Source of the DNA: an uncultured bacterium | GTDB lineage: Bacteria > Desulfobacterota > Deferrimicrobia > J040 | Direction: 5' to 3' | Assembly (NCBI GenBank): GCA_964347065.1 | Contig: CAYFXN010000005.1 | Coordinates: 1-61,719 of the forward strand | Length of the DNA: 61,719 bases | Shown here: positions 1,071 through 46,145 of the stretch, in pieces | Position numbering within the stretch: position 1 is the first letter of the stretch | Layout of the letters: the number at the start of each line of letters is the position of its first letter | Notes under the pieces: generated by a model | Told to the model about the DNA's origin: nothing | Seen by the model: the letters and a program-made list of their open reading frames with translations, nothing else | The model's database searches: none | Made by a program: the position numbers and the translations under genes

Positions 1071-2183
1071 TCATTCAGAGATGGCTAAATGGACCATCCT
1101 CGCGAAATTGAAGACGAGAACGCCATTGAATTCCCTCCCTGAATTCTCCATCATCAGAGCGATAATATCTTTGATTTCCCAATCTTTTTTGTACGGCCTC
1201 TTGCTCCTCAGAGCATCGAAAAAATCGGCAATCTGGACGACCTGACTCACGAGATGCTGCTTTTTTCTTTTATTGTTAAGCTTGGGATATCCTGTGCCGT
1301 CGTATCTCATGTGATGTTCGAAGGCAACGATCGGAGCGAGTTGTGTTAAGCCTTTCATACCAACCAGATAATTTGCTCCAGTAATCGTGTGGCGGGTTAC
1401 TTCCTGAAATTCCTCATCGGTGAGCTTGCCTTTTTTATTGAGGATATCTCTGGATAGGAACAGTTTTCCAACATCGTGAAGCAGGGCCGCAATGCCAATT
1501 TCGTGAAGCATTTCGTCGTTTATCCCGAGGGCCTCTGCCTGAAACATGGAAAGAACAGCCACGTTCGCTGCGTGAGTGTACGTATACTCGCTGTGCGATT
1601 TCACCGGGCTGATGAGCTTGAGAAAATGTGCTTCCCGCTTGAAGGTTATGAAAAAGTTGACCACGATCTCTTCGAGGCCGGCCACGTTTAACTTCTTGAA
1701 GGGAGATATGGAATTGAATATTTCCTTTGCCATCTCCAGCTGGGCTGCCGTTGCATTGCCCAATCCATCCGCTTCGGCTTCAGCGAGGGGCTGCAATTCG
1801 CCGGCCCGTAGTTCGACAACGCCCGTTTTTATGTGGGGATATGATCGAAACGGCTTGTTTTTATCGGTAAAATCCTCAATAAAACCGGCAAATTCCGGGG
1901 CCGTCAATCCTTTTAAAAAATCTATTCGCGATACTCCTTTTCTCTTCATCCGCTTTTTCAGGTTGTTTACGAGGCTTCCTTCATCGCGGGTGGGGCTTTT
2001 ATTGACGATAAGGTCATCTTCGACCATCATTATTTCAAAACTTTCGTTTTCCGCGAAGAATTCTGTGATGGTGGACAGGGATTTACCGATGAGGGCTTCT
2101 ACCGATGGATGCTCGGGCGAATAGAGAGAGCAGGTTGAGACGGCAGCCATGAACGTGGAGAGAAAGTTCTTATGGGGTTCCAT
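1071..2183 (-). CDS. HD-GYP phosphodiesterase with N-terminal YxxxHP domain (pair 1)
   Basis: YTYTHAANVA, LLHDVGK, EHHMRYDGTGYP, ADFFDALRSKRPYK. Start reassigned to ATG at 2183 (MEPHKNF) with a GGGGG RBS upstream. Confidence 0.88.
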   Translation of the reverse strand: MEPHKNFLSTFMAAVSTCSLYSPEHPSVEALIGKSLSTITEFFAENESFEIMMVEDDLIVNKSPTRDEGSLVNNLKKRMKRKGVSRIDFLKGLTAPEFAGFIEDFTDKNKPFRSYPHIKTGVVELRAGELQPLAEAEADGLGNATAAQLEMAKEIFNSISPFKKLNVAGLEEIVVNFFITFKREAHFLKLISPVKSHSEYTYTHAANVAVLSMFQAEALGINDEMLHEIGIAALLHDVGKLFLSRDILNKKGKLTDEEFQEVTRHTITGANYLVGMKGLTQLAPIVAFEHHMRYDGTGYPKLNNKRKKQHLVSQVVQIADFFDALRSKRPYKKDWEIKDIIALMMENSGREFNGVLVFNFARMVHLAISE

Positions 2184-4356
2184 GGTAGTTCCCCCGTGAG
2201 GTGGATTCAATTTTTTCACCACTTTTTAACAGTTTCAACGACTCCCCTCTTATAACATCGTTTTTTGATTTTGCCCCGGCTTCTGCGAGGCCCCGCACGT
2301 CATTTAAGGGGTAATGTTTCAATGTTTTGAAAACCTCTTCCCTGAGCCTCTCTATTGCACTTTTAAATAGAATGCTCTTTGAAAACATGAGATTTTTTAA
2401 AGCCCCAATTGCAGAGGGATCTCCGATCTTTCCCAGGACAGCAACCAGCGGGATCTTATCGAGATAATCTGCTCCGGTGACACCCTTTTTCTCCACCATC
2501 CTGAGTAGTTCGGGAACTGCTTCTTTGATCTTGAATGTTCCCGATAGGGTTATCGCCTGATTTACGAGTTTTTTTGAATTTGATCTGATATTTTTCATCA
2601 CCATATCTATGCCGTCCCTCTCACCTTTTTGAAGGAGGCATTTAATCGCTTCGGTACTTACTTGGATGTTTTCATTCTGACAGTAGGGTTTAACGTGAGG
2701 AATGACTTCCTTATCACCGCACTCTGTCAGGATAAATATCATGTTTCTTTTCACGAACCACCTATCATCGTCGAGTCGTTTTATCGCTTCTGAAACTGAT
2801 CTTTTACCGAAACCGGTGATCAACGTAATGATGAATCTCCTCGTTGCTTTGGACTCCTCATCGAATAAGACATCGAAGAGGTACGGCAGTATTCTCTCAC
2901 CGTAATAATTGCAGAGAACAGTGGTTTCATCGCGATTTAGTCTCCCCATGATCCTTAAAGATTCAACGAATCTAACAATGAATTCCTCTGAGTGAAATTG
3001 TTCGATAATGGTGGCAAAGAGATCCGGAAAAATTTTCTTTGCCTCGCTCTTTTCTATCCCTTTTATTATATTGAGGGCTTCGAAGTACTGACCAGTTTCG
3101 ACGTAATGTTGACACTGTTCGAGCAAAATTGGGATCTGTTTCTCCATGTCTTCATGAGAGACCATATTTGTACTTATAAGTTCGAGAAGAAATCGGTAGA
3201 AGGCCTTTTCGAGAGCCTCATATTCACATGCTTCTTTCAATTCTTTCATTTCTTCCTGGGCCAACTTTCCCGGTTCAAATTCAAGGATTTTCTGGATCTC
3301 ACGGTTATATTTCTCTGTAACGAATGCCTTGAAGTCACCCTTGCTGAGAAGGTTGATGATATCGGGTGACAGTAATATGTCATCGAGAATCGGTGAATCT
3401 TCGATAAACAAGTTTAACGGGTCATCTCTGCCATCAATTTTCGAGAACTTATCTATAAGGTTTTTAAGGGCTTCGGGTACCATGATCTTGTGTTCATTGA
3501 CGACGCTTAAAAGTTCTATAACTCTGTCGACAGATACTTCTCCGAGAGCTTTTTCAATCGGGACCATATCGGTTGAGATATTTTTCATAGTGGAAGAGAG
3601 AAACTGTTGTTTGAGTTCCGGACGGAGAGAATGTATGAAATCGAGCAATTTTTTCAGCTCAGTATCAGAAAAAAAACGTTCTGAGGAACTTCGTATGTAT
3701 GTGGTTATTACCCTGTCGTATGATTCCTCTTTTAAGTAACTGACCCCTTTCTCATTCAGCAGGGATGCGAGCATTTCCGGTGGGATTTTCCGTATTATCT
3801 CCGATCCTTCATTTTTCTGAAGGGTGCCTTCGAGGAGGCCGAAGAGGTAAAGTTCCCACAATTTTTTTTTCTCCTCGCCAGCCTCGGTCTTTCCCTCCTC
3901 GAAGATAAATGAGTCGTAATCTACGAAATCCAGGGTAATATTTTTAAGATTGAAACTTTTGCGGGATTCTTTTATCTCCTCGATAGATGTTTCGGAGGAC
4001 GTTTCAGAGAGGAACCGGTGAAATGCGTAAATATCATCTCTTGATAGGTTACGCGGGAAGGTAACGGAAGCGATACCGAGGCCGCTCAGGTACGTGGCGA
4101 AGTCCCGGTAAACGGGGTTTTTTTTGTCCAGGTAATGATTGTCAATCACCAGAGTGTCTTTCGCGATACCGAGGGTTATCTTCGGGCGTATATCGAAGAG
4201 CTTTTGCAACAGATCGTATGCCCGGTCAAGGGACCGTTGCACGGAGGGATGGTCTTCCGGATATATCGCGACATTTCTCCTCGAGATGTTGAGTTCGATT
4301 ATCGAATCGCTGAGCAACCGTGCATCGAGGGGTAATTTTTCCCTGCTATCCGCCAT
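2170..4356 (-). CDS. HEAT/ARM-repeat protein with N-terminal YPxxHP domain (pair 1)
   Basis: C-terminal half has PBS-lyase-type HEAT repeats (LDDDRWFVKRNMIFIL, STEAIKCL, LGKIGDPSAIGAL). N-terminus AIYPEDHPSV. ATG at 4356. Stop overlaps the HD-GYP start by 14 nt. Confidence 0.85.
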   Translation of the reverse strand: MADSREKLPLDARLLSDSIIELNISRRNVAIYPEDHPSVQRSLDRAYDLLQKLFDIRPKITLGIAKDTLVIDNHYLDKKNPVYRDFATYLSGLGIASVTFPRNLSRDDIYAFHRFLSETSSETSIEEIKESRKSFNLKNITLDFVDYDSFIFEEGKTEAGEEKKKLWELYLFGLLEGTLQKNEGSEIIRKIPPEMLASLLNEKGVSYLKEESYDRVITTYIRSSSERFFSDTELKKLLDFIHSLRPELKQQFLSSTMKNISTDMVPIEKALGEVSVDRVIELLSVVNEHKIMVPEALKNLIDKFSKIDGRDDPLNLFIEDSPILDDILLSPDIINLLSKGDFKAFVTEKYNREIQKILEFEPGKLAQEEMKELKEACEYEALEKAFYRFLLELISTNMVSHEDMEKQIPILLEQCQHYVETGQYFEALNIIKGIEKSEAKKIFPDLFATIIEQFHSEEFIVRFVESLRIMGRLNRDETTVLCNYYGERILPYLFDVLFDEESKATRRFIITLITGFGKRSVSEAIKRLDDDRWFVKRNMIFILTECGDKEVIPHVKPYCQNENIQVSTEAIKCLLQKGERDGIDMVMKNIRSNSKKLVNQAITLSGTFKIKEAVPELLRMVEKKGVTGADYLDKIPLVAVLGKIGDPSAIGALKNLMFSKSILFKSAIERLREEVFKTLKHYPLNDVRGLAEAGAKSKNDVIRGESLKLLKSGEKIESTSRGNYHGTP

Positions 4357-6279: not shown

Positions 6280-7638
6280 ATGAAGGTATTCACCGGAATA
6301 AGATTTAAACTTTCGCTCGTCACGCTCGTGCTCATTTTGTTTGTCACCGGAGCATCTTCTTTTATTGTCACCAATATAATGGATAGTTTCCTACTCAAAG
6401 AGCTCGTCAGGAGGGGTTTTTCCATCACCGGGAGCGCCTCCACAGCGGCAGGGTACAGCATCCTTTCGAACGACAGGCTTGCGCTGGATAATCTTGCTTC
6501 GAAGATTAGGCAGTATCAGAAAGACATCGTGTATGTGGCGATGGTTGATGACGAGGGCGTCATCAAGGCGCACAGTGATCTGGAAAAAATGGGAGAGCTT
6601 TTTATAGAGAGGGAAAGCGAGGTCATACGCAGAGAAGAAGACGGGTCGACGGTGAAAAAGGTCTTGAGAATGGGTACCATGTGCTTCGAATTCCGAACGC
6701 CCATCATTTTTGCAGATAAAGACCTGGGAGCGATCTATCTCGGAATAGCAGAACAGACTCTCATTGCATCTCAGGAGGAAGCAAGAAAAAAGATCATTCT
6801 CGTATCGGGAATAATTCTCACACTCGGAGTGGCCGGGGTATTTTTCCTTTCCGGTTTCATAACTACCCCGGTAAAGCGCCTTATGGAAGGCGTGTTGAAA
6901 ATGAAATTGTGGGAGTACAGGAGTGAAATCAAAGTGGTTTCCCGGGATGAGCTTGGAGAGCTGACGCGTAATTTCAACGAGATGGCGAACACGATAATGA
7001 ACCAGAAAGAAAAGCTCGAGCTCTCCGCCAGGGAACTGGAGGATGCGTATGTTGCAACAGTGAGGATTCTCGCAGCGGCGATTGATGCGAGGGATGAGTA
7101 TACCTTTGGTCATTCCGAAAGAGTTGCGAAGATATCTGTTCTCATCGGCAGTAAGAGCGGCCTCTCCAATGCCGAAGTGCGGGATCTTGAGATGGTATGC
7201 CTCTTTCACGATGTGGGAAAGATAAAAACCCCTGACAAGATTCTCCATAAGATGGCGCCCTTAAATGATGAAGAGTACAGATTGATGATGAAACATCCCG
7301 AGGACGGGGCAGACATCCTCCGGCTGGCAAATTCGCTGCAGAAACACGTCAAAGCTGTCCTCCACCATCATGAATGGCATAACGGGAAGGGATACCCTCA
7401 CGGGTTGAAAGACGGGCAGATTCCCTATTTTTCTTCTATTATTGCCATCGCAGACGCCTACGATGCCATGACATCATCGCGACCATACCGGAAAGGGATG
7501 TCAAGGCAGGAGGCGATGCAGGAGATTGTCAAGTATAAAGGCGTCCAATTCAATCCGGAAATAACAGACGTGTTCGTCGAAATACTGAAAGATCCGAAAT
7601 ACGCCAAAAAACTGGAAAGAAAAGGGGTCTATGGATGA
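6280..7638 (+). CDS. Membrane-bound periplasmic-sensor / HAMP / HD-GYP c-di-GMP phosphodiesterase
   Basis: Two TM segments, HAMP (SRDELGELTRNFNEM), AAIDARDEYTFGHSERVA, LFHDVGK, HHEWHNGKGYP, DAMTSSRPYR. GGGGAGG RBS. Confidence 0.9.
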   Translation: MKVFTGIRFKLSLVTLVLILFVTGASSFIVTNIMDSFLLKELVRRGFSITGSASTAAGYSILSNDRLALDNLASKIRQYQKDIVYVAMVDDEGVIKAHSDLEKMGELFIERESEVIRREEDGSTVKKVLRMGTMCFEFRTPIIFADKDLGAIYLGIAEQTLIASQEEARKKIILVSGIILTLGVAGVFFLSGFITTPVKRLMEGVLKMKLWEYRSEIKVVSRDELGELTRNFNEMANTIMNQKEKLELSARELEDAYVATVRILAAAIDARDEYTFGHSERVAKISVLIGSKSGLSNAEVRDLEMVCLFHDVGKIKTPDKILHKMAPLNDEEYRLMMKHPEDGADILRLANSLQKHVKAVLHHHEWHNGKGYPHGLKDGQIPYFSSIIAIADAYDAMTSSRPYRKGMSRQEAMQEIVKYKGVQFNPEITDVFVEILKDPKYAKKLERKGVYG

Positions 7639-8949: not shown

Positions 8950-9000
8950 GTGAGGAAAAGGGATGAAGGATGCCGGTGTCTTGCTGTGGTGAGGATGTAA
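8950..9000 (+). CDS. Candidate 16-aa small protein MRKRDEGCRCLAVVRM
   Basis: Near-perfect SD GAGGAGGT at 8936-8943, GTG at 8950, TAA at 8998-9000. No homology recognised. Confidence 0.25.
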   Translation: MRKRDEGCRCLAVVRM

Positions 9001-9176
9001 CCTTTTGTTTTCGTGAAAGTAAATATTATTGAAAGGGAAAGAGTTCAATGTGCAGGTTTGGTACTGAAAGAATCGGGCTCTATGAGAATTTGGGCATCGG
9101 GCCTGGTGATTCCGCGAAAAGAACGAAAAACTTCCCGAAAGGTATATCGCCGAAGTGGCGAAACCAGCGGATGACC

Positions 9177-11162
9177 CTATTTTTTCAGTAATTTCCTGAC
9201 ACTCTGGGTTAATTCCCGGAGTTTGACAAGATCTTCCGGTGAAATTTTCCCGAACCGTGCACGGTTGTACTCACGGATGAACAGGTGGTAAGCAGCGGAA
9301 TCCAGAATCATCCTATCATTCACTTTACAAAGATACTCGGTGGGGGTTTCCGATTTTTCCTTTCGAATTCCATGTTTTTTTCCTTCGCGTATTATCGGCC
9401 TGAGAAATTGTTTGTAAATTGGGTTCTGACGTCCTATCGAGGATATTCTTTTTCTCCGGGCGGGGAGAAGATACAGGAAACAGGCGGAAGTGACAATGAG
9501 GACCAATAAAGGCAGAAGAAGGGCCCTTGCACCCTCCCGCAGATTGCCGCTTACGTTGCGACTCAATTTCAGAGAACCGAGGATGAGTTCTCTCGAGAGT
9601 TTTACCTGTTTCTCGAGGTCGTACCCAACTACGTACTCCTGCCAGTTCTGTCTGATCCAATCGAAGACGTGGTTGAGACGGCTGTTCGGGGAGAGTTGCA
9701 AAGGACCGAGGGGAGTGGAATCTACGATTGTCCACCCAGCACCCCGGAGAAAGACCTCTGCCCAGGCGTGTGCGTCTCGCTGCCGGAACATCCAGTAATT
9801 TCCCATTTCGTTGTATTCGCTGGAAATGTAACCACCGGCAAGCCTGGCCGGAAGTCCCATAGCCCAGGCGAGCAGCACCGTCGATGTTGCAAAATGCTGG
9901 CAGTTCCCCTCTTTTCTCCCGTCGAGGAATTCTCGCAGAGATACTTTTCCCGGGACCCTTTTATATCGGAAGTTTTTACGAAGATAACCGGTTATCGCAC
10001 TCACTTTGTCTGGCTCGTCAAAAGTTCCGGCTCGAAGATTTCTCGCAATGATTTCGATCATCTCCGGAAGATCACCATTCGCTGAGTAGTGTTTCTCTCC
10101 TGTTTCCTCTTTTCTCTGGTTCTTGCCGTTGATGAGGGTGTACTTTACCGGATGGGTTATGGGTGCCTGTGAATTCACGTCACCTTCCTGGTCGATGAAG
10201 AGTTTTCCCCAGTCCCACTTTATGGCGATGGATTCAGGAAGTGTGGGTACGATGGTATCTCCCGTTGCTCCCAGGAAAACGTCCACCCGATTGTCGGTTA
10301 GACTTTTTCCGTCCCCTTTGAGCAGGGAATGGGTTCCCTTCCCGATCAGGTGAAGCCGCTGATTTCTCTTGAACCAGGCGTCATTGTGGTATTCGGAAAG
10401 TGTTATGGACTTGAGATAGATTGGCGATGCTCTCGACAGATTTCCCCTTACCCGCGCGATTACTTTCCCGTCAATATTTGAAAACGTGTCCATTTTGAGA
10501 TCGAGCTTCCCGGCGGCGCCCGGCATATTTTCTCCTTGCATCATCTTCCTTCCGAGAAAACCGACACCGAGACGGGGTATGGAGAGAAAAATAATGATCG
10601 TGATGACCAAGGAGGCCAGTCCGATGCCTCCTAAAAAAGTGATGAAACTCGATCTCAGCGTGATATCACCATCTCTTTCGGCGGACCGGAGATCGGATTC
10701 CGTGTTCACGAAGAGTATGAACAAGGTAACAGTCGTCAGAACAGTTATGAGAACGAAAATTGGGAGAAAGAGAAATTTTGAAGTGAGAGAGGCGCCAGCT
10801 ACCACCTGGATATACGCGATTCCCGTGAGGATGAAGAAATCCTTTACTACCAGGGGACTGATCCACTTGAAACCCTGATATACCAGCAGTGTTTCAAGGA
10901 AAACGGGTAAGAGGTCCCCTCCGGTCAGGGTGATTCTCAAAATCATGTAGAGCATTAGAGCCGTGGCTGCTACCAGATCCCTGATCTTGCTCTTTTCCGA
11001 AAACGTGATGTGCCTCCGGGGAAAGAGGAGCCGGAATGAGATCGCCATCGCTACGAAGATGATCAGAGAGAAGGAGATAGATCCCGTTATGAGAATGCAC
11101 GCCAACGACAGGAACGTGTACAACGCAGATATCCGAACAATTATGTGGTACTGTTTATTCAT
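9177..11162 (-). CDS. DUF3488 + transglutaminase-like membrane protein (TgpA family)
   Basis: Multi-TM N-terminus, catalytic triad GNCQHFAT / AHAWAEVF / VDSTP, C-terminal TM and DUF4129-like tail. Confidence 0.88.
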   Translation of the reverse strand: MNKQYHIIVRISALYTFLSLACILITGSISFSLIIFVAMAISFRLLFPRRHITFSEKSKIRDLVAATALMLYMILRITLTGGDLLPVFLETLLVYQGFKWISPLVVKDFFILTGIAYIQVVAGASLTSKFLFLPIFVLITVLTTVTLFILFVNTESDLRSAERDGDITLRSSFITFLGGIGLASLVITIIIFLSIPRLGVGFLGRKMMQGENMPGAAGKLDLKMDTFSNIDGKVIARVRGNLSRASPIYLKSITLSEYHNDAWFKRNQRLHLIGKGTHSLLKGDGKSLTDNRVDVFLGATGDTIVPTLPESIAIKWDWGKLFIDQEGDVNSQAPITHPVKYTLINGKNQRKEETGEKHYSANGDLPEMIEIIARNLRAGTFDEPDKVSAITGYLRKNFRYKRVPGKVSLREFLDGRKEGNCQHFATSTVLLAWAMGLPARLAGGYISSEYNEMGNYWMFRQRDAHAWAEVFLRGAGWTIVDSTPLGPLQLSPNSRLNHVFDWIRQNWQEYVVGYDLEKQVKLSRELILGSLKLSRNVSGNLREGARALLLPLLVLIVTSACFLYLLPARRKRISSIGRQNPIYKQFLRPIIREGKKHGIRKEKSETPTEYLCKVNDRMILDSAAYHLFIREYNRARFGKISPEDLVKLRELTQSVRKLLKK

Positions 11163-22067: not shown

Positions 22068-23069
22068 ATGATTGCAAAAAACAGATCATGGCAGTCGATA
22101 GAGGGAGTAAGAATCGGAAAGGCCGTTTCCGCAAACGGGCTCACGGGGACCTCGGTTATGATTTTCCCCGATGGGGCGGTTGCTTCCGCAGAGGTACGGG
22201 GTTTTGCAACGGGAACCCGGCAGATGGATTCCCTCTCGCTGACCCACACGGTGGAAAAAGCCTACGCCCTGGTTGTTTCTGGCGGGTCCGTATTTGGCCT
22301 CGATGCGGCATCGGCGGTTGCACGTGAGTTGAACCTGAAAAACATCGGGCTTTTCACGGGTATTACCAGCATCCCCGTGGTTCCAACAGCCGTGATATAT
22401 GACCTGTCATTCCCGGAAAATGTAGGAACCAATTACGGAGAGTTGGGGAAAAAAGCCATTGACGATGCTTTCTCAACGGCTGTCGGGGAGGAGGGGGGTG
22501 GTGCCGGTGCCGGTGCATCGGTTGGCAAAATTCTCGGCATAGAGCGGGCGACGAAAACTTCCAAAGGACTTGCCGCTCGATCGGTGAAGGAAGGATATCA
22601 TGTTGGTGCCATGGTGGTTCTCAATGCCTTTGGAGATGTATACGACAAAAAGGGTGGCATAGTTGCAGGTGTCAGGCGCATGGACGGGAAGGGATTCGAT
22701 AATTCAAGGAAGCTGTTCATGGAGGGGCACACGAGGAAACCCTTTGGCGTTATGGACAGTACCACCGTGTCGGCTGTGGTGACGGACGCAGATCTCGGAA
22801 AGAAGGAACTTTTCATCGTTGCTTCTCAAATCAACAACTTTCTCGCGTCACATATACGGCCTTACGGCTCCATTTTCGACGGAGATATCGTATTTTCTCT
22901 CTCCACGGGGAAAAGGGGAAAGGTGGATAATCTCTTGAAATTTATTGTTATGGCGGAAGAGGTGGTTTATGAATCTCTGATGGTGGCCGTTTTTTCCGCA
23001 AAATCCTCAGGCGGTTTGCCCTGTGCAAGGGAAATATTGGGAGAAGGAGGAGAAATTGGAAGAGATTGA
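22068..23069 (+). CDS. P1/S58 family peptidase (DmpA-like)
   Basis: EVRGFATGTR, VVSGGSVFGLDAASAV, VPTAVIYDL, GAGAGASVGK, FDGDIVFSLST. Confidence 0.88.
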   Translation: MIAKNRSWQSIEGVRIGKAVSANGLTGTSVMIFPDGAVASAEVRGFATGTRQMDSLSLTHTVEKAYALVVSGGSVFGLDAASAVARELNLKNIGLFTGITSIPVVPTAVIYDLSFPENVGTNYGELGKKAIDDAFSTAVGEEGGGAGAGASVGKILGIERATKTSKGLAARSVKEGYHVGAMVVLNAFGDVYDKKGGIVAGVRRMDGKGFDNSRKLFMEGHTRKPFGVMDSTTVSAVVTDADLGKKELFIVASQINNFLASHIRPYGSIFDGDIVFSLSTGKRGKVDNLLKFIVMAEEVVYESLMVAVFSAKSSGGLPCAREILGEGGEIGRD

Positions 23070-23631
23070 AAGGATACTGAACATCCTCATTCAAGATGAG
23101 GTCGCTCCCGTGAAAGATGAGGCGGTTAAATCCCTCGGCAAGTTCTCTGCGAGAAGGAGATTTCCTGAGTTTATGGGGGTACTTACTTCCGGAAAACCTG
23201 AAGACCGGATGAGGGTTGTTTACGCTGCAGAGGAGATGGGAGGAGATGAGGGTCTCAAGCTTCTCATGCAAGCCGTTGAAGACAGCGCCGATGATGTGAG
23301 AGGCGCAGCGATAAGGATTCTCGAGAATTACCCCCGGGCAGAGGTGTTGAAGACTCTCGTGGATCGGCTTCCCCAAGAAAAGGGCTTCGTTCTGGGAAAC
23401 CTGATAAGCGTTCTGGGCCGGTCCGGGAGAAAGGAGCTCGCCCCCATTCTGACACGGTTCATAAGTCACCCTGACACGGAGATACAGGCAAGAACGATCG
23501 AAGCTCTCGGCCATATAGGAACTGCAGAGGACCTGAAAGAGATAATCGGAAAAGCTGTTTCAGAGAGTCCGTCAGTTCGCAAGGCAGTGGCATTTGCACT
23601 CGGAGCTATCTCCTTAAGCCACGGATCTTGA
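23056..23631 (+). CDS. HEAT-repeat (PBS lyase-like) protein
   Basis: About five HEAT repeats (DDVRGAAIRIL, IQARTIEALGHIG, VRKAVAFALG). Start reassigned to TTG at 23056 behind AGGAGG. Confidence 0.8.
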   Translation: MEEIERILNILIQDEVAPVKDEAVKSLGKFSARRRFPEFMGVLTSGKPEDRMRVVYAAEEMGGDEGLKLLMQAVEDSADDVRGAAIRILENYPRAEVLKTLVDRLPQEKGFVLGNLISVLGRSGRKELAPILTRFISHPDTEIQARTIEALGHIGTAEDLKEIIGKAVSESPSVRKAVAFALGAISLSHGS

Positions 23632-24990
23632 AGGGTTTGCGTTCTCAAGGAGGGGGTTGACGGTGGTGACGATGCTCCTGTTGAACTTCCCCGTTTTCGG
23701 GTCTTTTTCTATAAGGTCTATGTGAACGGGAAAGTCCAGATTCCTGCCTTCTGCGTCGGTGAGCACGATTACCTTCGGTCGAGCCGAATCCTCAGTGTTT
23801 TGGGCTGATACGACGGCCACCTCGTCTGTATCGAGCTTCACCATCGTACCGATCGGGTAAATACCGAGAATTTTTATCAGGACCTTGATCATCGCCGGGT
23901 CCAGAGACTTGCCCGCCATTTTTGTCATCACTTCCAGGGATTCTTTCGGGGTTCTCGGTTTCTGATATGTTCTGAGCGTTGAGAGGGCGTCGTAACAGTC
24001 TGCAATGCTCACGATCTGGCTGTACGGTTCCATTTTGTATCCGGGCTCGATTTTGGGATATCCGGAGAGATCGAAACCCATGTGGTGTTCCCGTACGATC
24101 TTGCCGGAAACGGGGTTTATGAACTCCATTTCGATCAATATCCTGTGTCCTTCGTCGGGATGTTTCTTGATCTCTTCAAATTCCTCAAGTGTCAGGGTCG
24201 ATGGTTTTCTGATGAGGTCGAGAGCGACCTGGGTCTTCCCTACGTCGTGGAGGAGTCCCGCGACCCCTATGTCGATCTTTTCGCTTTCAGATAGGGAGAG
24301 GGATTCAGCGATAGTGAGTGAGATAACCCCGACGTTAACGGAATGGGTGTAGGTATATTCATCGTAGTTCTTTATCATCGTGAGGGCAAGCATGGCATCC
24401 TGATTTTTCTTGAGCATGCCCGACATGTCCTGGACCACTTTTCTCGATTCACTTCCCGAGGGAATTTTACCGAGGCGGATGTCGTTCATTGCCGCCGTAA
24501 CCGCCGAAATTGCGTTCTCGTAAATTTCCTTCGCTGCGGAGAGATCATCCGGTTCCTTGTCTTTCTCGACGGTGACGACCACGATCTTTTTAATATCCTC
24601 GATCTGGAAAAGGTTTCTCACCTTCTGCTCGCTTAATATGCTCCCGCGATTTGCGTGAAGTATCGATATGAAGCTCTCCAGTTCGCTTTTTTTCAATCCC
24701 CGGTGGAAGACAAGTGCCTCGATGCCGCATTCTCCGAGAGATTTGATGAATAGTTCTAAAGAAGAGGTGAGTTGAAACAGGGGAGTTCCTTCGAAAACGA
24801 GCGTTTCGTCCACGATGGCCAGCGCGAGTTCATTGAGTGATTCGAGCAGGGAAGTTATGAGATCGTAAGCTTGAGCTATAGTTTTTTGCACGAGAGGATG
24901 GTTTTCGGGGTAAAGGCCAAGGTTTTTGAGGGCGCCCCCCAGAGCTTTCGTTATTTCCTTTATCTGTGCCTCAAGCTCCATCCTTTCCAT
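23614..24990 (-). CDS. HD-GYP phosphodiesterase with N-terminal YPxxHP domain (pair 2), RxxQ variant
   Basis: GLYPENHPLV, YTYTHSVNVG, LLHDVGK, EHHMGFDLSGYP, DALSTLRTYQ, C-terminal YPIGTMVKL extension. Confidence 0.88.
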   Translation of the reverse strand: MERMELEAQIKEITKALGGALKNLGLYPENHPLVQKTIAQAYDLITSLLESLNELALAIVDETLVFEGTPLFQLTSSLELFIKSLGECGIEALVFHRGLKKSELESFISILHANRGSILSEQKVRNLFQIEDIKKIVVVTVEKDKEPDDLSAAKEIYENAISAVTAAMNDIRLGKIPSGSESRKVVQDMSGMLKKNQDAMLALTMIKNYDEYTYTHSVNVGVISLTIAESLSLSESEKIDIGVAGLLHDVGKTQVALDLIRKPSTLTLEEFEEIKKHPDEGHRILIEMEFINPVSGKIVREHHMGFDLSGYPKIEPGYKMEPYSQIVSIADCYDALSTLRTYQKPRTPKESLEVMTKMAGKSLDPAMIKVLIKILGIYPIGTMVKLDTDEVAVVSAQNTEDSARPKVIVLTDAEGRNLDFPVHIDLIEKDPKTGKFNRSIVTTVNPLLENANPSRSVA

Positions 24991-26539
24991 GGTCCATCCT
25001 CTCGAGAATTTTGGCTGCCTCCTTCCTACATATGCTATCGGAACCTTTGGTCAAATTTTCAAGTGCTTCATGTGCTTTTTCGGATTTTATTTTTCCGATG
25101 CCCTGGACGGCAAACATTTTGAGCTCCTTCAATCTCCTTGGCTTGAACAGCGGGTTGTACAGGGCGATGCTCTGTAATACAACTACCGCATTCTCGGTTC
25201 CGATGTTTTTCAGCGAATCGATAATCTCCTTCGAGATCCTGTAGTCAGGATAGACGAACTTTCTCCTTCCGAACCTCTCTTTGAGGATTTGTATGGCCGA
25301 ATCGTCTTTTTTCGTTCCCAAGGCTGCCACAGAAATAGTCGCTATGTTTTCGTCGGCATCGAAACAGCATTGACCAAGAGCCGTAATCGATATGGGGCTC
25401 TGGATTTTTGAAAGCGCTTTGATCGCCTCTTTCTTAACCCGCGGGTCGGGGTTCTTGAGCGTGTTTGCTATGTGCTGGGCAACCTCCTCTTTCCCAATTC
25501 CTCCCAGAATGGTGATCATGTTTCTGATGACGTACCATCTCGTGTCATCGAGGAACTTTACGATATACGGGATGGCAGGGTCCCCTATCTTGGTAACCAG
25601 ATCAACCATCGCTTTCCGGACGATGAGGTTCTTTTCATCAGTGAGCGCTGCAAGAATTTTTACCACGCCCGCTTCCCCTATAATGAGCAGGACGGTCTGG
25701 GCTTCCACCCTCTCCTGAAGCGATTTGCTCCCGAATTTTTTCACGTAAAGGTCGATAATATCCTCATCGACGAGCTCTTTGATACCCGTGATGGCGAGAT
25801 CTTTGATTTCTTCGTTCCCACCGGGAGGATACTCCGTGTGGTTGGAAAAGATCTTGATGGCCTTTTCGGCTTGGAGCAGTCGCTCCTTACGTGTCAGCTC
25901 ATCGATTTTTTTCAAAATCTGCTGAAGAGTATCTCTGTATTCTCCCGATTCAGCCGTTTGCGCCAGTTTGGACAGGAGCGTGTCGATATCGTCTTCCTCA
26001 ATTTTCATCTCCTTATCAATGGGCACTTTTTCAAAAATGATATGTTCATTTTCCTGTGGTGCCGGCTCCTTCTCCTTCTTGAGCTCCTCCATCAATTTTT
26101 CATAATCAACCCTGTTTATCCAGATTTTTGAAATTCTCATTCCTATGAGGATCCTCTCAAGCCCGCCCTTATTCATAATCTCGTCGGGATCGAGAGAAAT
26201 AGCTTGCAAAAAATCCCTCATCTCATCAAGTGTTACACCGGGTAGGAGGATGAGTTTGTTGGTTCTGCGAACGAAGAGTGCATTTCGAAAATCCGAGATG
26301 GCATCATGCTTTTCGGGAAGTTTTGTTTCACCGACGGTAAGGCTCGGTTTGCTCACGGAAATTTCGATTCCCCCGTCAGGGGGGGGGACATCATCTATCG
26401 ACTGGCAGATTTTCTGTAATATTTTTATCAGCGAGGGATGGCTTTCCGGATAGAAAGAAACTGCTTTCATCCCCTTCGCCATTTCCGTTACTGCTTTTGT
26501 AATCTTGTCGATGTAGGATTCCCTGTTATCGTCTTTCAA
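24971..26539 (-). CDS. HEAT-repeat protein with N-terminal YPxxHP domain (pair 2)
   Basis: SFYPESHPSL at the N-terminus, HEAT repeats (LDDTRWYVIRNMITILG, DPRVKKEAIKAL). TTG start. Overlaps the HD-GYP start by 20 nt. Confidence 0.85.
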   Translation of the reverse strand: MKDDNRESYIDKITKAVTEMAKGMKAVSFYPESHPSLIKILQKICQSIDDVPPPDGGIEISVSKPSLTVGETKLPEKHDAISDFRNALFVRRTNKLILLPGVTLDEMRDFLQAISLDPDEIMNKGGLERILIGMRISKIWINRVDYEKLMEELKKEKEPAPQENEHIIFEKVPIDKEMKIEEDDIDTLLSKLAQTAESGEYRDTLQQILKKIDELTRKERLLQAEKAIKIFSNHTEYPPGGNEEIKDLAITGIKELVDEDIIDLYVKKFGSKSLQERVEAQTVLLIIGEAGVVKILAALTDEKNLIVRKAMVDLVTKIGDPAIPYIVKFLDDTRWYVIRNMITILGGIGKEEVAQHIANTLKNPDPRVKKEAIKALSKIQSPISITALGQCCFDADENIATISVAALGTKKDDSAIQILKERFGRRKFVYPDYRISKEIIDSLKNIGTENAVVVLQSIALYNPLFKPRRLKELKMFAVQGIGKIKSEKAHEALENLTKGSDSICRKEAAKILERMDHGKDGA

Positions 26540-28418: not shown

Positions 28419-28473
28419 AGCATTCATCAAACAGCGTCTTGTTACCGATATTAAATATATGCTGGAGGTAGTC

Positions 28474-29505
28474 ATGGAGTCCAATAAGAAAAAAGCTCTC
28501 GATATAGCCCTTTCGTCCATTGAGAAACAATATGGAAAGGGTTCAATCATGCGGCTAGGGGAGCGCGTCAGCGTTCCGGACGTTCCGGTGATCCCCACCG
28601 GCTCCATTTCTCTTGATTTAGCACTCGGCATCGGGGGTATTCCCCGGGGAAGGATCACGGAGATTTTCGGTCCCGAAATGTCGGGAAAGACGACGCTCGC
28701 TCTCCACATTTTGGCGGAATCACAGAAAATGTCGGGCGTCACCGCTTTCGTCGATGCCGAACATGCCCTCGATGTGCGCTATGCGTCGAAACTGGGTGTC
28801 AATACAGATGATCTTATCATTTCCCAGCCCGACTCAGGGGAACAGGCCCTCGATATTGTCGAGACGCTGGTTCGGAGCGGGGCGCTTGATCTGATCGTCA
28901 TCGATTCAGTGGCGGCGCTCGTGCCGAGAGCCGAACTCGAAGGGGAGATGGGTGACGCGCACATGGGCCTCCAGGCAAGACTCATGTCCCAGGCGCTGCG
29001 GAAACTTACGGCAACAATAAGTAAGTCCAACACCTCCGTGGTGTTTATCAACCAGACGAGGATGAAAATAGGGGTAATGTTCGGAAATCCCGAGACCACG
29101 ACGGGAGGCATGGCCCTCAAGTTTTATTCGTCACTGAGGATAGACATCCGGAGAATAGCACAGATCAAGGTGGGCAACGAGGTGATCGGAAACAGGACTC
29201 GGGCGAAGATCGTAAAAAACAAGCTCGCTCCTCCTTTCAGGGATGTGGAGTTCGACATACTCTACGGTGAAGGTATTTCCAAGGAGGGAGACCTGGTTGA
29301 TCTGGCCACCAATTTGGGAATAGTGGAGAAGAGCGGATCCTGGTATTCTTTCAAGGACGAGAAAGTGGGGCAGGGCAGGGAAAACGTGCGCCTGTTCCTT
29401 CAGCAAAATAAGGATGTGAGCGATAGCATAGAGAGGGAAGTGAGGGAGAAAACGGGGTTGAAGGCGTTGAAAGGGGAGGAGAAAAACCAAGAGCAGGGAG
29501 ATTGA
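28474..29505 (+). CDS. recA: Recombinase RecA
   Basis: [59 protein letters not shown] at 28474 behind GGAGG. Confidence 0.99.
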
Positions 29506-30647
29506 AGATGTCCCTTAATTTGAATGAAATATTACAGGTTGCCGTTAAAAACGGCGCATCGGATGTTCACCTTAAAGTGGGGCTACCCCCAGTACTCAGA
29601 GTTAACGGGAGGCTCGTTCCCCTGAAAGTGGACTATCGGTTGAAACGCGAAGATCTCATGGCCATCACGAATATGGTTCTGAGCGATGCCCAGAAGGAAA
29701 AGTTTAGGGACGCGCGAGAACTCGACGTGGCCTATAGCGTCTCCGGGCTCGGTCGTTTCAGGACCAATATATTCATGCAGCGGGGTACGCTCGGCATCGC
29801 CCTGCGGGTTGTCCCCGGGGGCGTCCTCTCCTTCGAGGAGTTAAACCTTCCGGAAGTTCTCGAAAAAGTTGCCATGGAGGCAAGAGGCCTTATCCTTTGT
29901 ACCGGAACCACGGGGAGCGGCAAATCGACGACACTTGCTTCGATCATAGAATATATCAACAATCACAGGACATGCCATATCATCACCATCGAAGACCCGA
30001 TCGAGTTTCTCCTCAAGGATAAAAAGAGCATTATCACACAACGGGAGGTGGAAGTTGACACCCCCTCGTTCGCAGCGGCCCTGAAGAGCGCCCTCAGACA
30101 GGATCCCGACGTGATACTCCTGGGAGAGATGAGGGACTACGAGACCATTGAAACTGCTCTTATTGCTGCCGAAACGGGACATCTCGTTCTCAGCACCCTT
30201 CACACGCTGGATGCGGCAGAGACCATCAACCGCATAATTACCGTTTTTCCTCCCTATCAGCAGAAACAGATACGCCTGCAGCTCTCAACGATCCTCAAAT
30301 CAGTCATATCGCAGCGCCTGGTGATGAGAGCTGATGGTGAAGGTAGGGTGCCGGCAGTGGAAATACTTCTGAACACTGCAAGGGTCAGGGAATATATCGA
30401 GGACAAAGAGAAGACGAAAAAGATACGGGATGCGATAGCCGAGGGCTTCGTATCCTACGGGATGCAGACCTTCGACCAGTCCCTCATGAGTCTCTACAAA
30501 AGTCAACTGATTAGCCTCGATGAGGCGATGAGGCAGGCAAGCAACCCTGACGACTTTGCCCTACGCGTCAAGGGTGTGACGAGCAGTTCCGACCTCACAT
30601 GGGATGAGTTTGAAAGGGCAGGAGGAGATGAGGAAGACGGTCTGTGA
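29502..30647 (+). CDS. pilT: Type IV pilus retraction ATPase PilT/PilU family
   Basis: [60 protein letters not shown]. Start is TTG at 29502 or ATG at 29508. Confidence 0.93.
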
Positions 30648-31138
30648 AAAAGGGTGACGGTGATTGTTTCAGGGAATCTCTCAGGATAGTGTCCAGGCGG
30701 CAATATTCTGTGTTGGAGGTGCGTGAGAAACTTCTGAAGAAGGGTTTTGGCGAGGGACCTGTCGGGGAATCGGTAAGCAAACTGGAGGATTACGGATACC
30801 TCGACGATAGGGAACTGGCGAAATCGATCGTCTATAGCAAGTTCCATTCAGCAGGGTACGGGAGAAGAAAAATCCGTCAATATCTCAGGAGAAGGAAAAT
30901 CCCTGAGAATATAATAGATAGTGAACTGGAAGAGTCCGTTTCCCGGAGGGAGGCAATCGAGAGAGGGGTAGCGCTCCTGGGAAGAAAACAGCAGCGGGCT
31001 GAAAAAAAACTCATGTCGGAGAAGGGAAGGGTTTTGCGGTTCCTCGCGGGGAGGGGGTTTGAACTCGGCGAGTGTATCGATATAATTTCTGCATACGAGA
31101 AAATGAAGAGGAAAGAAAATGACGGGGAAGGAAGTTAG
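30644..31138 (+). CDS. recX: Regulatory protein RecX
   Basis: RRQYSVLEVREKL, YGYLDDRELA, YGRRKIRQYLRRRKI, RFLAGRGF. Confidence 0.85.
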   Translation: MKKGDGDCFRESLRIVSRRQYSVLEVREKLLKKGFGEGPVGESVSKLEDYGYLDDRELAKSIVYSKFHSAGYGRRKIRQYLRRRKIPENIIDSELEESVSRREAIERGVALLGRKQQRAEKKLMSEKGRVLRFLAGRGFELGECIDIISAYEKMKRKENDGEGS

Positions 31139-42576: not shown

Positions 42577-42612
42577 TTTATCTCATGTATACCTATCATA
42601 ACTGATGAGGGT

Positions 42613-44172
42613 ATGGCTATGAGAAAGAGACTCGGCGAGATTCTGATTGAGGCGGGACTTATAACCAACCAGGATCTCAACTACGCCCTCAAATCGCAGC
42701 GGCAGCTCGGTGGTACCGTTGGTGAAGCATTGGTTAGATTGGGATACGTGTCTGAAGAGCAGATCCTCCGTGCGCTATCCAAGCAACTTTCCCTCTCCCA
42801 TGTGAATTTGAGTAAAATCTCCATTCCCGAGGATGTGCTCAAAGTGGTTTCTTATTCAACGGTAAAGGAGAGAAAGATTCTTCCCCTCGGGTATGAAGGC
42901 TCGAAACTGATTGTCGGGATGGTGGATCCGACCGACCTCGAAGTGCTCTCGCAGGTGGAATTTAAAACGGGAAAAGCGACGCAACCGGTAATCATATCAT
43001 CCCACCAGTTTGGTGATGCCCTTCTCTTTTTCGAGGATCGTGGTTACGGAACGGTTCTTTTCGAACTGAGAGAGGATGTTGTCAAAAGAACGGAGGTAAT
43101 CGGGAATGATGTAGACAGCTTTCTCTCTACCCTCGTTGAGTTAAAAGGGCAGGACCTTCACCTTTCGGCAGGCGCGATCCCGAGTCTCAGGGTAGACAAC
43201 GAGTTGAGGAGGCTCAACTTTCCCGCCCTGACGCCTATTCAGATGGATAACATGATGTCCAAAATGCTTTCTTCGGAAAGGAAGAAGAGATTCGATGAGA
43301 CATTCGAGCTAGATTTTGCCTATTCTCTCGATGGGGTGGGCAGGTTCAGGTGTAATCTCTACAAGCAGCGGGGGTCTTTGGCATTTATAGCCCGCCACGT
43401 AGTGGAAGAGGTTCCAGAAGCCGATGAATTGGGCCTCCCTGCCTTCATTCGTGACTATGCGCTGAAAATAAGCGGGCTCATCCTCATTGTGGGAGCGAAC
43501 GGCCACGGAAAGTCAACAACCCTCGCTACCATGGTTGACATTATCAACAGGGAACGGAAGGCAAACATCATAACCATAGAAGATCCCATAGAGTTCACGC
43601 ACAAGCACAAGAACTCGAACGTGAACCAGCGGGAGGTTGGGACCGACACAAAATCTTTCGCTGACGGGTTGAGACATGTCTTCAGGCAGAATCCGGATGT
43701 CATCGTTATCGGTGAACTGAGGGATTTCGAAAGTATTTCGATAGCGCTGAGTGCGGCAGAGACGGGCCACCTCGTAATGGGAACGCTCCACTCCAACAAT
43801 GCCGTTTCCGCGGTGGACAGAATTATTGATATCTTCCCCCCGGGCCAACAGCAGCAGGTTCGGGCGCAGTTTGCAGACTGCATCGAGCTGGTTTTTTCAC
43901 AGCGGCTCATAAAAAAAGCCGATGGCACGGGGAGGATCTTGGCCTGGGAGAAGATGGCAACCAGCCCGCGGGTTCGCAATGCGATTCGGGAAGGAAAGAC
44001 ACATAATATTCGGAACATGATGCAGACGAACCTGGAGGAGCTGGTGAGCATCGACTGGACAATCGCCGAACTCGTTGCCGCGGGAAGGATCCACTATGAG
44101 GAGGCGATCAAGTTTGCCGATAACCTGAATTATTTTAACGATCTCTTGAAATTAAGGGGTGTTTACCGGTGA
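42613..44172 (+). CDS. MshEN/T2SSE_N-fused PilT-family ATPase
   Basis: N-terminal [24 protein letters not shown] (MshEN motif) with a second degenerate copy. C-terminal PilT domain ([57 protein letters not shown]). Confidence 0.9.
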
Positions 44173-44180
44173 GAGACAGG

Positions 44181-44285
44181 TTGGTCCAGATAAGAGGCCA
44201 AGCAGAGGCGAGAGAGAAATGGCACTTCTGGTGGTTCTACATCCTGAAGTGGCGCCCCTGTGGTTTCGATTCCCTTTCGTTATGA
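44181..44285 (+). CDS. Aromatic-rich attenuator leader peptide ([34 protein letters not shown])
   Basis: Not in the ORF track. TTG at 44181 with GGTGA SD 8 nt upstream, or GTG at 44169 overlapping the pilT stop. TGG-CAC-TTC-TGG-TGG-TTC-TAC at 44220-44240. TGA at 44283-44285. Confidence 0.72.
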
Positions 44286-44291
44286 TTCCGG

Positions 44292-44324
44292 AGCCACCGG
44301 GGGGAACACCCGGTGGTTTTCTTT
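44292..44324 (+). terminator. Intrinsic terminator (attenuator) upstream of aroA'
   Basis: AGCCACCGGG-GGGAACA-CCCGGTGGTT followed by TTCTTT, 30 nt before the aroA' start codon. Confidence 0.85.
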
Positions 44325-44353
44325 CAATTAAGCTTGAAAGGTGGAGGAAGACA

Positions 44354-45145
44354 TTGATAGGAAAAAAGGTAAGGCTCGAAAGAATAATCAATAGAAATAC
44401 GGGGAAAACGGTTATCGTTCCCATGGATCATGGGCTCACCGCAGGCCCGATAGAAGGGCTGATCGACGTTTCGAAAGCCGCGAATCTTGTTGCCGAGGGG
44501 GGTGCCAACGCAGCTGTGGTTCACCGGGGCGGAGCGATGTTTGGCCACCGCGGTTACGGTAAGGATTTGGGTCTGATAATCCATCTGTCGGCATCGACGA
44601 ACCTTGCTCCCGATGCGAATAAAAAGATCCTCGTTGCGACTGTGGAGGACGCCATCCGGTTGGGTGCCGACGCGGTATCCATACACATCAACCTCGGTGC
44701 CGATAACGAGGCTGAAATGTTATCCGATTTCGGGGTCATTTCTTCTTCGTGCCATTATTGGGGGATGCCGCTTTTGGCGATGATGTACACTCGGGGACCG
44801 AAAATATCGAACCAGTTCGATCAAAAATATGTAAAGCACGCCGCGAGGGTCGCTGCAGAGATGGGAGCGGATATCGTGAAGGTCCCCTATTCCGGTTCCG
44901 TTGAATCCTTCAGCGAAGTCGTTACTGGCTGCGCCATACCGGTAGTGATAGCGGGAGGAGAGAAGATGAGCAGCGATTTTGAAGTCCTGACGATGGTCGG
45001 GGAGGCAATATCAGCGGGGGCAACGGGCGTTTCCATCGGAAGAAACGTATTTCAGCACACATCTCCCACGAAAATGGTGAGGGCGATTTCCGATATTGTG
45101 CATAACGGGGCCGGCGTAGAAGAAGCCCTGTGTGTTCTTGAGTAG
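44354..45145 (+). CDS. aroA': 2-amino-3,7-dideoxy-D-threo-hept-6-ulosonate synthase (archaeal-type AroA', class I aldolase)
   Basis: [59 protein letters not shown]. Start reassigned to TTG at 44354 (GGAGG RBS). Paired with DHQ synthase II. Confidence 0.88.
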
Positions 45146-45155
45146 GGAGTGTGAG

Positions 45156-46145
45156 ATGGAATTCTGGGTGAGGAGCATCCCCTACAAGAAAGAAATTATC
45201 ACCTTCGCTCTGGAACGCGGAATATCGACCTTCTGGGTGCAGGACAAATCGGTTGGTGCCGTGAGGAGGCTGGGCAAAGTGAATGTCGTAGCAGAGTCTG
45301 GGGACGTGAAACCGGGTGTGGATTTTAAGGTCTGTGAGATAACGGAACGGGGAGAACTGGAGAGGCTGTACACCCTTCCCGATGAGCTGTTGATATACGT
45401 GGAGGCAAGGAAAGAAGAGATCATACCACTTGAAAACCTCGTGGCTCAGCGCAAGAAGGTCCTTGTTCCTGTCAGGGGGGAAGATGACCTTCGTGTCTTC
45501 TCGGGGGTTCTGGAAAAAGGCGTCTGGGGGGTCGTTTTCGATGTGGATTCGCCGGGGGAACTATCCTTCCTCCTGTCCCGTTTCGATGAATGGCAAATAT
45601 CCCTCCAGTTGAAAAAAGCCGTGATTACGGAGGTTGACGTTCTCGGTCTCGGGGATAGAGTGTGCGTCGACACCTGCACCCTCATGACAGGACCGGTTGG
45701 TATGCTCGTGGGCAACTCCTCGAGAGGCTTATTCCTCGTCTCAGCCGAAAACGTCTCCTCTGAGTATGTTGATGAAAGACCTTTCAGAGTGAATGCCGGG
45801 GCAGTGCACATGTATACTCTCCTCCCATCGGGGAGGACCTGTTACCTTTCCGAAATCGAGGCGGGAAGCCAGGTCCTCACTGTGAGAAGCGATGGCGTTT
45901 CAGAAGTTGCGTGGGTGGGAAGGGCAAAGATCGAGAAAAGGCCCCTTCTCTTGATAAAAGGGGATGCGGGGGGAAAGGAGGTCTCTGCTGTTGTGCAGAA
46001 CGCAGAAACAATAAGGCTGATTTCCCCCAAGGGAGAACAGATATCGGTATCGGAGATAAAGAGGGGCAAGGAAGTCCTGTGTTTTCTGGACGAGGGGGGA
46101 AGACACTTCGGGATGAAAATAGAGGAAACGATCAAAGAGAAGTGA
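45156..46145 (+). CDS. aroB': 3-dehydroquinate synthase II (archaeal-type AroB')
   Basis: IIPLENLVA, GDRVCVDTCTLM..PVGMLVGN, RPFRVNAGAVH, GRAKIEKRPL, GGRHFGMKIEETIKEK. ATG at 45156. Confidence 0.93.
   Translation: MEFWVRSIPYKKEIITFALERGISTFWVQDKSVGAVRRLGKVNVVAESGDVKPGVDFKVCEITERGELERLYTLPDELLIYVEARKEEIIPLENLVAQRKKVLVPVRGEDDLRVFSGVLEKGVWGVVFDVDSPGELSFLLSRFDEWQISLQLKKAVITEVDVLGLGDRVCVDTCTLMTGPVGMLVGNSSRGLFLVSAENVSSEYVDERPFRVNAGAVHMYTLLPSGRTCYLSEIEAGSQVLTVRSDGVSEVAWVGRAKIEKRPLLLIKGDAGGKEVSAVVQNAETIRLISPKGEQISVSEIKRGKEVLCFLDEGGRHFGMKIEETIKEK

Follow-up and report, generated by a model that had tools for sequence, protein, structure and literature searches.

Prevailing models place the control of pili by cyclic di-GMP (c-di-GMP) either on the extension motor, where MshE or PilB senses the messenger through an MshEN domain, or on adaptors of the FimX-PilZ type, and they leave PilT messenger-blind. 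PilT is tabulated as 'no binding' for c-di-GMP (Romling, 2023, PMC10333796). In the FimX-PilZ-PilB systems of Xanthomonas and Pseudomonas and in the MshE-dependent control of MSHA retraction in V. cholerae, c-di-GMP sets the balance of extension and retraction indirectly, with the extension motor or an adaptor as the receptor (PMC7096442 and PMC8389850). The extension-type ATPases known to carry an MshEN domain, namely MshE, M. xanthus PilB, C. perfringens PilB2 and the GspE protein PA14_29490, share one layout: two 24-residue motifs separated by a 5-residue spacer, the MshEN_C subdomain, a linker and an N2D-CTD core. Here we describe a gene that encodes the same N1D(MshEN)-linker-N2D-CTD layout but whose motor is of the PilT type instead. 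It lies at 42613..44172 on the forward strand of a 61,719-nucleotide stretch of DNA, called the window throughout, which is contig CAYFXN010000005.1 (assembly GCA_964347065.1) of an uncultured bacterium of the Deferrimicrobia lineage J040.

The literature on MshEN domains has not drawn this distinction. Wang et al. (2016, PMC5013675) listed 'MshEN-T2SSE' among many architectures and never separated PilT-type from PilB-type motors; the word 'PilT' occurs only in the reference list of that paper. A 2024 review on PilB regulation treats MshEN on PilB only (PMC11656802). We found no description of a PilT-type MshEN fusion in the open-access literature, to which the search was confined (non-open-access papers and InterPro or COG notes lay outside its scope). 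Nor is there a dedicated NCBIfam model for the clade, and the best family-level name is generic.

The encoded protein joins an N-terminal MshEN domain with conserved ligand contacts to a PilT motor with intact ATPase motifs, and this architecture is conserved in one main clade. Our best explanation, to which we assign a probability of roughly 60%, is that the protein is a retraction-type PilT ATPase with a complete c-di-GMP receptor module through which the messenger gates the motor directly. As in the indirect systems, c-di-GMP would set the balance between extension and retraction; unlike in those systems, the receptor domain is part of the PilT-type polypeptide itself. The gene and its sensor domain comprise the following features (residue numbers count from ATG 42613).

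42613..44172, forward strand: MshEN-PilT gene, open for 519 codons; 519 aa if read from ATG 42613, although ATG 42619 (517 aa) is the likelier start
42628..42699 (aa 6-29), forward strand: c-di-GMP motif I, a strict match to the 24-residue MshEN motif
42700..42714 (aa 30-34), forward strand: 5-residue spacer RQLGG, of which QLGG is nearly invariant in 121 family members (Q and both G invariant)
42715..42786 (aa 35-58), forward strand: c-di-GMP motif II, with Thr for the usual Arg; Gly, hydrophobic positions and Gln are kept
42790..43041 (aa 60-143), forward strand: MshEN_C / T2SSE_N1-like subdomain, containing D105, the equivalent of D108 in V. cholerae MshE (VcMshE)

The first-pass annotation of this DNA had read a full MshEN match at 42628-42699, and it stands: motif I fits RLGxx(L/V/I)(L/V/I)xxG(L/V/I)(L/V/I)xxxxLxxxLxxQ, the strict definition taken from Wang et al. 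(2016, PMC5013675), at all specified positions. The strict motif occurs once in all six-frame open reading frames (ORFs) of the window, while residue shuffles expect 0 strict and 0.075 relaxed matches. The degenerate second copy that had been placed five residues further on is a near-complete motif II, which retains G3, G10, L21 and Q24 as well as hydrophobic residues at positions 2, 6, 7, 11, 12 and 17. The family models agree with these assignments. NF053729 (c-di-GMP_motif; 'cyclic di-GMP-binding domain, MshE-related') matches aa 6-58 over profile positions 1-53 of 53 with 67.9 bits (cutoff 38), and PF05157 (MshEN) matches aa 60-137 with 48.4 bits (cutoff 23.1). When solved structures were searched by sequence, the N-terminus matched MshE (5HTL) and the GSPII domains of PilF. 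The AlphaFold2 model of aa 1-155 (pLDDT 90) contains the four-helix MshEN_N bundle together with the alpha/beta MshEN_C fold; its best match among solved structures is 5HTL_B, VcMshE with c-di-GMP (E 3e-12, TMt 0.74), and the complex of PilF GSPII-B with c-di-GMP comes second.

Conservation extends to the individual ligand contacts. By HMMER alignment, R9/L10/G11 of VcMshE correspond to R6/L7/G8 of the query and L25/L29/Q32 to L22/L26/Q29, while in motif II R38/L39/G40 correspond to T35/V36/G37 and L54/L58/Q61 to I51/L55/Q58; D108 aligns with D105. Contact or turn positions are kept or conservatively replaced in 15 of 16 cases, the sole outlier being the change from R38 to T35. Among the 121 family sequences both motif glycines and both glutamines are invariant or nearly so, and the hydrophobic contacts are nearly invariant. 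Thr35 is itself invariant in these sequences, most of which have Lys-Ile-Gly at the start of motif I. VcMshE is reported to bind c-di-GMP mainly via hydrophobic clusters, backbone amides of glycines and the two glutamines, and a change of Arg9 shifted its affinity less than 5-fold (Wang et al., PMC5013675). PilF provides a parallel for the non-Arg residues found in this family, which in most members are Lys in motif I and Thr in motif II: GSPII-B, whose motif-first residues are Lys and Leu, has an affinity of 6 nM for c-di-GMP, and GSPII-C has Pro at a motif-first position and binds at about 460 nM (PMC11731258). The likeness has its limits, as the GSPII domains sit in triplicate on an extension ATPase and Thr is not among the PilF motif-first residues compared. 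Because both GSPII domains bind without Arg at these positions, the Thr of motif II is probably tolerated. Given the conserved contact residues and the tolerance at the R38 position, the MshEN domain of the query is likely to bind c-di-GMP.

Behind the sensor follow a linker and the two domains of the motor.

43042..43110 (aa 144-166), forward strand: flexible, poorly conserved linker, with pLDDT below 50 at aa 155-161
43111..43422 (about aa 167-270), forward strand: PilT N-terminal (N2D, PAS-like) domain, from the pilT_fam model and structure matches
43423..44169 (about aa 271-519), forward strand: PilT C-terminal RecA-like ATPase domain, from domain models and structure matches
43492..43515 (aa 294-301), forward strand: Walker A GANGHGKS; the family consensus is GPNGHGKS
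43570..43596 (aa 320-328), forward strand: Asp box ITIEDPIEF, by motif inspection
43696..43725 (aa 362-371), forward strand: Walker B with the catalytic Glu, by motif inspection
43762..43803 (aa 384-397), forward strand: His box, by motif inspection
43969..43992 (aa 453-460), forward strand: RVRNAIRE, the counterpart of the AIRNLIRE helix of PilT

The motor belongs to the PilT family and not to the PilB family, as had been proposed. TIGR01420 (pilT_fam, the PilT/PilU family) matches aa 168-504 over profile positions 3-340 of 343 with 401.5 bits (cutoff 319.1). The equivalog models of the extension ATPases, TIGR02538 and TIGR02533, are not passed: PilB reaches 183.6 bits against a cutoff of 675.65 and GspE 136.9 bits against 630.25, and the best stretch of either model is limited to the P-loop core at aa 286-435. 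Among solved structures searched by sequence, PilT chains scored 308-312 bits, PilU 248 bits and PilB at most 157 bits. The full-length AlphaFold model (pLDDT 84.5) consists of a four-helix bundle, an alpha/beta subdomain, a disordered linker and a PilT core, and Foldseek placed the core on T. thermophilus PilT2, Geobacter PilT4 and P. aeruginosa PilT (TMt 0.87-0.93, 39-44% identity); PilT2 and PilT4 matched the full-length model with TMt 0.87-0.92 and 42-44% identity. PilU and DotB ranked next, and PilB and GspE appeared only at E values of about 1e-23. A PilB or GspE affiliation is therefore ruled out by the hidden Markov model (HMM) scores, the sequence search of structures and Foldseek. 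Identity with PilU is not favoured either, since PilU (9n32) reached 248 bits and 36-37% identity versus 308-312 bits and 42-44% for PilT.

The tetracysteine zinc site of extension ATPases is absent, as the first-pass annotation had noted, for the protein has only Cys247 and Cys423. Its other motor readings were likewise borne out, with RVRNAIREG at aa 453-461 representing the expected VRNAIREG helix and the atypical Walker A GANGHGKS at aa 294-301. Hardly any variation is seen among the 121 homologues in Walker A, the Asp box, Walker B, the His box or RVRNAIRE. The protein resembles the PilT retraction ATPases of G. metallireducens and G. sulfurreducens (PilT4), T. thermophilus (PilT2), P. 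aeruginosa and A. aeolicus in its N2D and CTD domains (39-44% identity, TMt 0.87-0.93), its four intact ATPase motifs and, in part, a helix that aligns with AIRNLIRE. It differs from them by about 165 extra N-terminal residues (MshEN and linker), the GHGK P-loop, the RVRNAIRE variant and a gene position outside any pil cluster. From the MshEN-bearing extension ATPases it is set apart by the PilT-type motor, the missing tetracysteine site, the Walker A GxNGHGKS and the Thr-first motif II. As part of the overall explanation given above, and with the same better-than-even confidence, the motor is predicted to be a catalytically competent, hexamer-forming member of the retraction-type PilT family.

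The fusion is far from unique: it marks a large and old clade whose database annotation goes no further than 'PilT/PilU family'. A word-indexed search retrieved more than 120 protein clusters from NCBI, JGI, ENA and Logan (61-97% identity), nearly all of 515-523 aa and all with PF05157 and PF00437; the named clusters are 'PilT/PilU family type 4a pilus ATPase' from Ca. Deferrimicrobiaceae, Deltaproteobacteria or Thermodesulfobacteriota. The same collinear fusion is present in six syntenic loci of metagenome-assembled genomes (MAGs; 63-73% identity), where the gene order, as far as the contigs extend, is M17 peptidase, DUF2064, hisG, DUF2400, (O-methyltransferase), MshEN-PilT, ADH synthase, DHQS-II and tatC. 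An exhaustive search of 50%-identity representatives combined with local HMMs yielded 18-22 further clusters with MshEN_N, MshEN_C and PilT (34-52% identity), and a profile search yielded about 80 more 90%-identity clusters, with named members from Syntrophobacter fumaroxidans, Desulfoferrobacter, Nitrospirota/Thermodesulfovibrionia and Acidobacteriota. For S. fumaroxidans the single named sequence is HOI95508.1, whose source is a MAG assigned to this species. The distant members P0142 and P0369 pass the cutoffs of both pilT_fam and c-di-GMP_motif, and the His of the P-loop (GHGK for GSGK) is a signature common to most distant MshEN-PilT clusters. The architecture is widespread.

A neighbour-joining tree of motor domains places the main MshEN-PilT clade within PilT and well away from the PilB/PilF-like outgroup. 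Exact bootstrap support for this clade is modest (46 of 100 replicates) but reaches 98 of 100 once a single additional taxon is tolerated. A few fusions, namely P0137 and the pair P0160/P0164, fall outside it and look independent. Five relatives (P0130, P0136, P0143, P0165 and P0191) have lost Walker A and Walker B, with APPGHGGGT and DVIAVDELAD as an example of the degenerate sites, while their c-di-GMP motifs are largely kept, and they are probable pseudo-ATPase receptors. Other relatives had also lacked Walker A in a regular-expression search, but several simply carry A/SxxxxGK[ST] variants, and only these five are truly degenerate. The same collection of PilT domains holds other architectures: tandem PilT-PilT fusions, about 720-1020 aa long and each with two Walker A sites, are common (P0122, P0125, P0126, P0128, P0133 and P0277-P0312; named examples come from Byssovorax, Polyangiaceae and Kiritimatiellaeota), and N-terminal extensions of 150-750 aa, of unassigned type, precede many other PilT domains.

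The fusion can be challenged on the motor side as well as on the sensor side. No pilB, pilC, pilM-Q or pilin gene is found near the fusion in the window or in the six syntenic loci, and besides its two PilT-type genes the window as a whole has no pilus gene; because the neighbours there are housekeeping genes (hisG, DUF2400, ADH synthase and DHQS-II), homology alone links the protein to a pilus machine. RVRNAIRE aligns to pnpAIRNLIRE of PilT4 and is identical to AIRNLIRE at only 5 of 8 positions. The tree is a neighbour-joining tree of unlabelled representatives with few labelled references and a single PilB-like outgroup. Given the Walker-less relatives, the common function of the clade may be sensing or scaffolding and not motor work. 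In motif II, the Thr at position 1 lies outside both [RKPN] and the extended R/K/L set, and the motif thereby misses the strict as well as the relaxed published definition. All of this weighs against a c-di-GMP-gated retraction motor. One alternative is a protein that binds c-di-GMP but is no retraction motor: it could drive extension or be bifunctional, work as a traffic ATPase for a different type IV filament or for DNA uptake, or be a signalling ATPase. Absence of pilus genes beside the fusion in seven loci, the N1D-N2D-CTD layout shared with extension ATPases and the pseudo-ATPase relatives within the clade are in line with such a role, and there is precedent: V. cholerae PilT is reported to promote both extension and retraction of the MSHA pilus (PMC9815625), and roles other than retraction have been proposed for Geobacter PilT1, PilT2 and PilT3 (Speers, 2016, PMC5065972). 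We nonetheless regard this as unlikely, as the motor domains have the PilT fold and are 42-44% identical to PilT4 and PilT2, a C-terminal helix that partly resembles that of PilT is present and the extension-type tetracysteine site absent, and two Syntrophobacter-type loci (L015 and L013) also encode a separate GspE/PilB-type ATPase, a pairing that would be expected of an antagonist.

On the sensor side, MshEN might be a docking module only, which senses no c-di-GMP and tethers a PilT paralogue to a platform or partner in the way that the N1D of GspE docks on GspL or the N-terminus of PilB on PilZ. Such a role would accommodate a motif II that starts with Thr and falls outside both published motif definitions (PMC5013675), and domains of the MshEN fold that do not bind are known from XpsE and PilF GSPII-A. 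The N-terminal model also matches the N-terminus of Xanthomonas PilB in its complex with PilZ (TMt 0.64). We judge pure docking to be quite improbable all the same. The changes that inactivate XpsE (G11V, I19R, L29R, R38G, G40L, L54H, L58C and Q61V) are not found in the query except at the R38 position, both glycines, both glutamines and all hydrophobic contacts are nearly invariant across the 121 sequences, the NCBIfam c-di-GMP_motif model is passed well over its cutoff (67.9 versus 38), and PilF domains with non-Arg first residues bind with nanomolar affinity. Some Deltaproteobacteria produce cGAMP via Hypr-GGDEF enzymes, which raises the possibility that the physiological ligand is another cyclic dinucleotide such as 3'3'-cGAMP. 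The VcMshEN domain does bind cGAMP, though weakly (KD 3.3e-4 M; PMC5013675). With two near-symmetric motifs of the guanine type and with HD-GYP and GGDEF genes as the neighbouring or co-resident signalling genes, we find a different ligand very unlikely. That an assembly or gene-calling artefact joined the 5' end of a pilB gene to pilT, finally, has a negligible probability: nothing was found in its favour, there is no compositional break in GC content at the MshEN/PilT junction, and a chimera is refuted by the more than 120 clusters and the six syntenic MAG loci in which this collinear protein, about 520 aa long, recurs.

Three rows of the nucleotide sequence concern the boundaries of the gene and its transcript.

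42607..42611, forward strand: Shine-Dalgarno-like GAGGG, read from the sequence; it precedes ATG 42619 by 7 nt and ATG 42613 by 1 nt
42619, forward strand: second ATG, probable start of the MshEN-PilT gene
44290..44320, forward strand: GC-rich hairpin of 12 bp with a T run behind it, likely terminator of the MshEN-PilT gene; folding of 44280-44335 gives -22.6 kcal/mol

The second ATG, which gives a protein of 517 aa, is probably the true start because of the 7-nt spacing to GAGGG and because the closest homologues begin with MRKRLGE or MKKKLGE. Downstream, automatic ORF calling begins the ADH synthase gene at GTG 44159, so that it overlaps the MshEN-PilT stop; this start is probably wrong: the family model begins only at residue 67 of that ORF, and a good Shine-Dalgarno sequence precedes TTG 44354, where the gene most likely begins. 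With the hairpin and T run lying before that start, the MshEN-PilT gene looks monocistronic. The hairpin call is a reading of the sequence and not a statistical result, as a terminator scan gave 1 terminator-like site versus about 2 in shuffles. The ADH synthase gene and a gene for 3-dehydroquinate synthase II, together an archaeal-type entry into the shikimate pathway, directly follow the fusion (window 44354-46145, forward strand), and in L013 a DAHP synthase-chorismate mutase gene (8894-9988) lies directly upstream of the fusion homologue. A functional tie to aromatic amino-acid synthesis was considered and rejected, as four other contexts show no such link; the neighbourhood is probably lineage synteny or chance.

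Elsewhere in the window, three genes bear on c-di-GMP.

1071..2222, reverse strand: HD-GYP protein, HD and GYP motifs intact
6280..7638, forward strand: HD-GYP protein with sCache and HAMP, HD and GYP motifs intact
23614..24990, reverse strand: HD-GYP protein, HD and GYP motifs intact

All three are predicted to be c-di-GMP phosphodiesterases, and the organism therefore makes use of the messenger. HEAT-repeat proteins, encoded at 2170-4362 (reverse strand), 23023-23631 (forward strand) and 24971-26539 (reverse strand), directly adjoin two of the three HD-GYP genes. In other lineages signalling genes stand near the fusion itself. In Syntrophobacter-type loci (L015 8001-13726 and L013 10001-15803) MshEN-PilT comes first in a cluster and is followed, in this order, by ODP (a di-iron, oxygen/NO sensor-like domain), a histidine kinase, a receiver and a GspE/PilB-type ATPase. 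That ATPase scores 528-552 bits on GspE and 496-544 bits on PilB, and the one in L015 carries an MshEN domain of its own. Such a cluster has the look of two opposed motors under the control of a sensor. Nitrospirota-type loci have a GAF-GGDEF cyclase upstream of the fusion, adjacent and divergent in L017 (6471-7904, reverse strand) and two genes away in L012 (5935-7338, reverse strand); a phosphofructokinase gene is located downstream. L016 is the sole locus with prepilin genes, about 6 kb from the fusion.

The window has a second PilT gene, between recA and recX.

28459-29505, forward strand: recA, 5' neighbour of the second PilT gene
29502..30647, forward strand: PilT-family ATPase of 381 aa, 470 bits on pilT_fam, 42% identical
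30644-31138, forward strand: recX, 3' neighbour of the second PilT gene

The first-pass annotation had supposed a conventional PilT alongside the fusion. A PilT-family gene is indeed present, but it is not of the conventional kind: it lies in a pgpA-cinA-thpR-recA-pilT-recX-alaS cluster, has ARVREYIED in place of AIRNLIRE and resembles PilT1 of Geobacter sulfurreducens, with the recA-pilT1-recX arrangement of Geobacteraceae. There, pilT1 is co-transcribed with recA and a role in DNA uptake has been proposed, and the only paralogues said to restore a pilT mutant of P. aeruginosa are PilT3 and PilT4 (Speers, 2016, PMC5065972). The second PilT of the window is itself a specialised paralogue and no evidence for a conventional pil-cluster PilT in the genome.

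How might c-di-GMP act on such a motor? We propose that one c-di-GMP per protomer would be bound in the four-helix MshEN_N bundle, and that the signal would be transmitted via the flexible 23-residue linker and perhaps also by the N1D-like MshEN_C subdomain, which would dock onto the PilM/PilC platform. Binding would gate either the engagement of the motor with the pilus machine or ATP hydrolysis, so that the messenger would act on retraction directly and not solely through the extension motor. If MshE is a guide, the domain may hold the motor back when empty and activate it once c-di-GMP is bound; this sign is a guess, made because a triple-Leu variant of MshE is described as constitutively active (2024 PilB review, PMC11656802).

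The fusion combines two well-understood modules and inverts the expected target of the messenger. It suggests that c-di-GMP can act directly on a retraction motor. More tentatively, and at well below even odds, the MshEN-PilT clade could be a second, unrecognised arm of c-di-GMP pilus control, in which a high-affinity receptor motor, depending on the messenger level, would vie with the extension motor for the platform or take its place there (motor switching), and Walker-less members would serve as brakes or plugs that depend on the ligand. Tests of the idea would be cheap, as the protein is a soluble single chain, the mutations are predictable and heterologous pilT complementation assays exist. 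The database label 'MshEN-T2SSE' hides two mechanistically opposite motor classes. If our reading is true, the messenger could address retraction directly in many anaerobic lineages, among them Deferrimicrobiota, Syntrophobacteraceae, Nitrospirota and Acidobacteriota.

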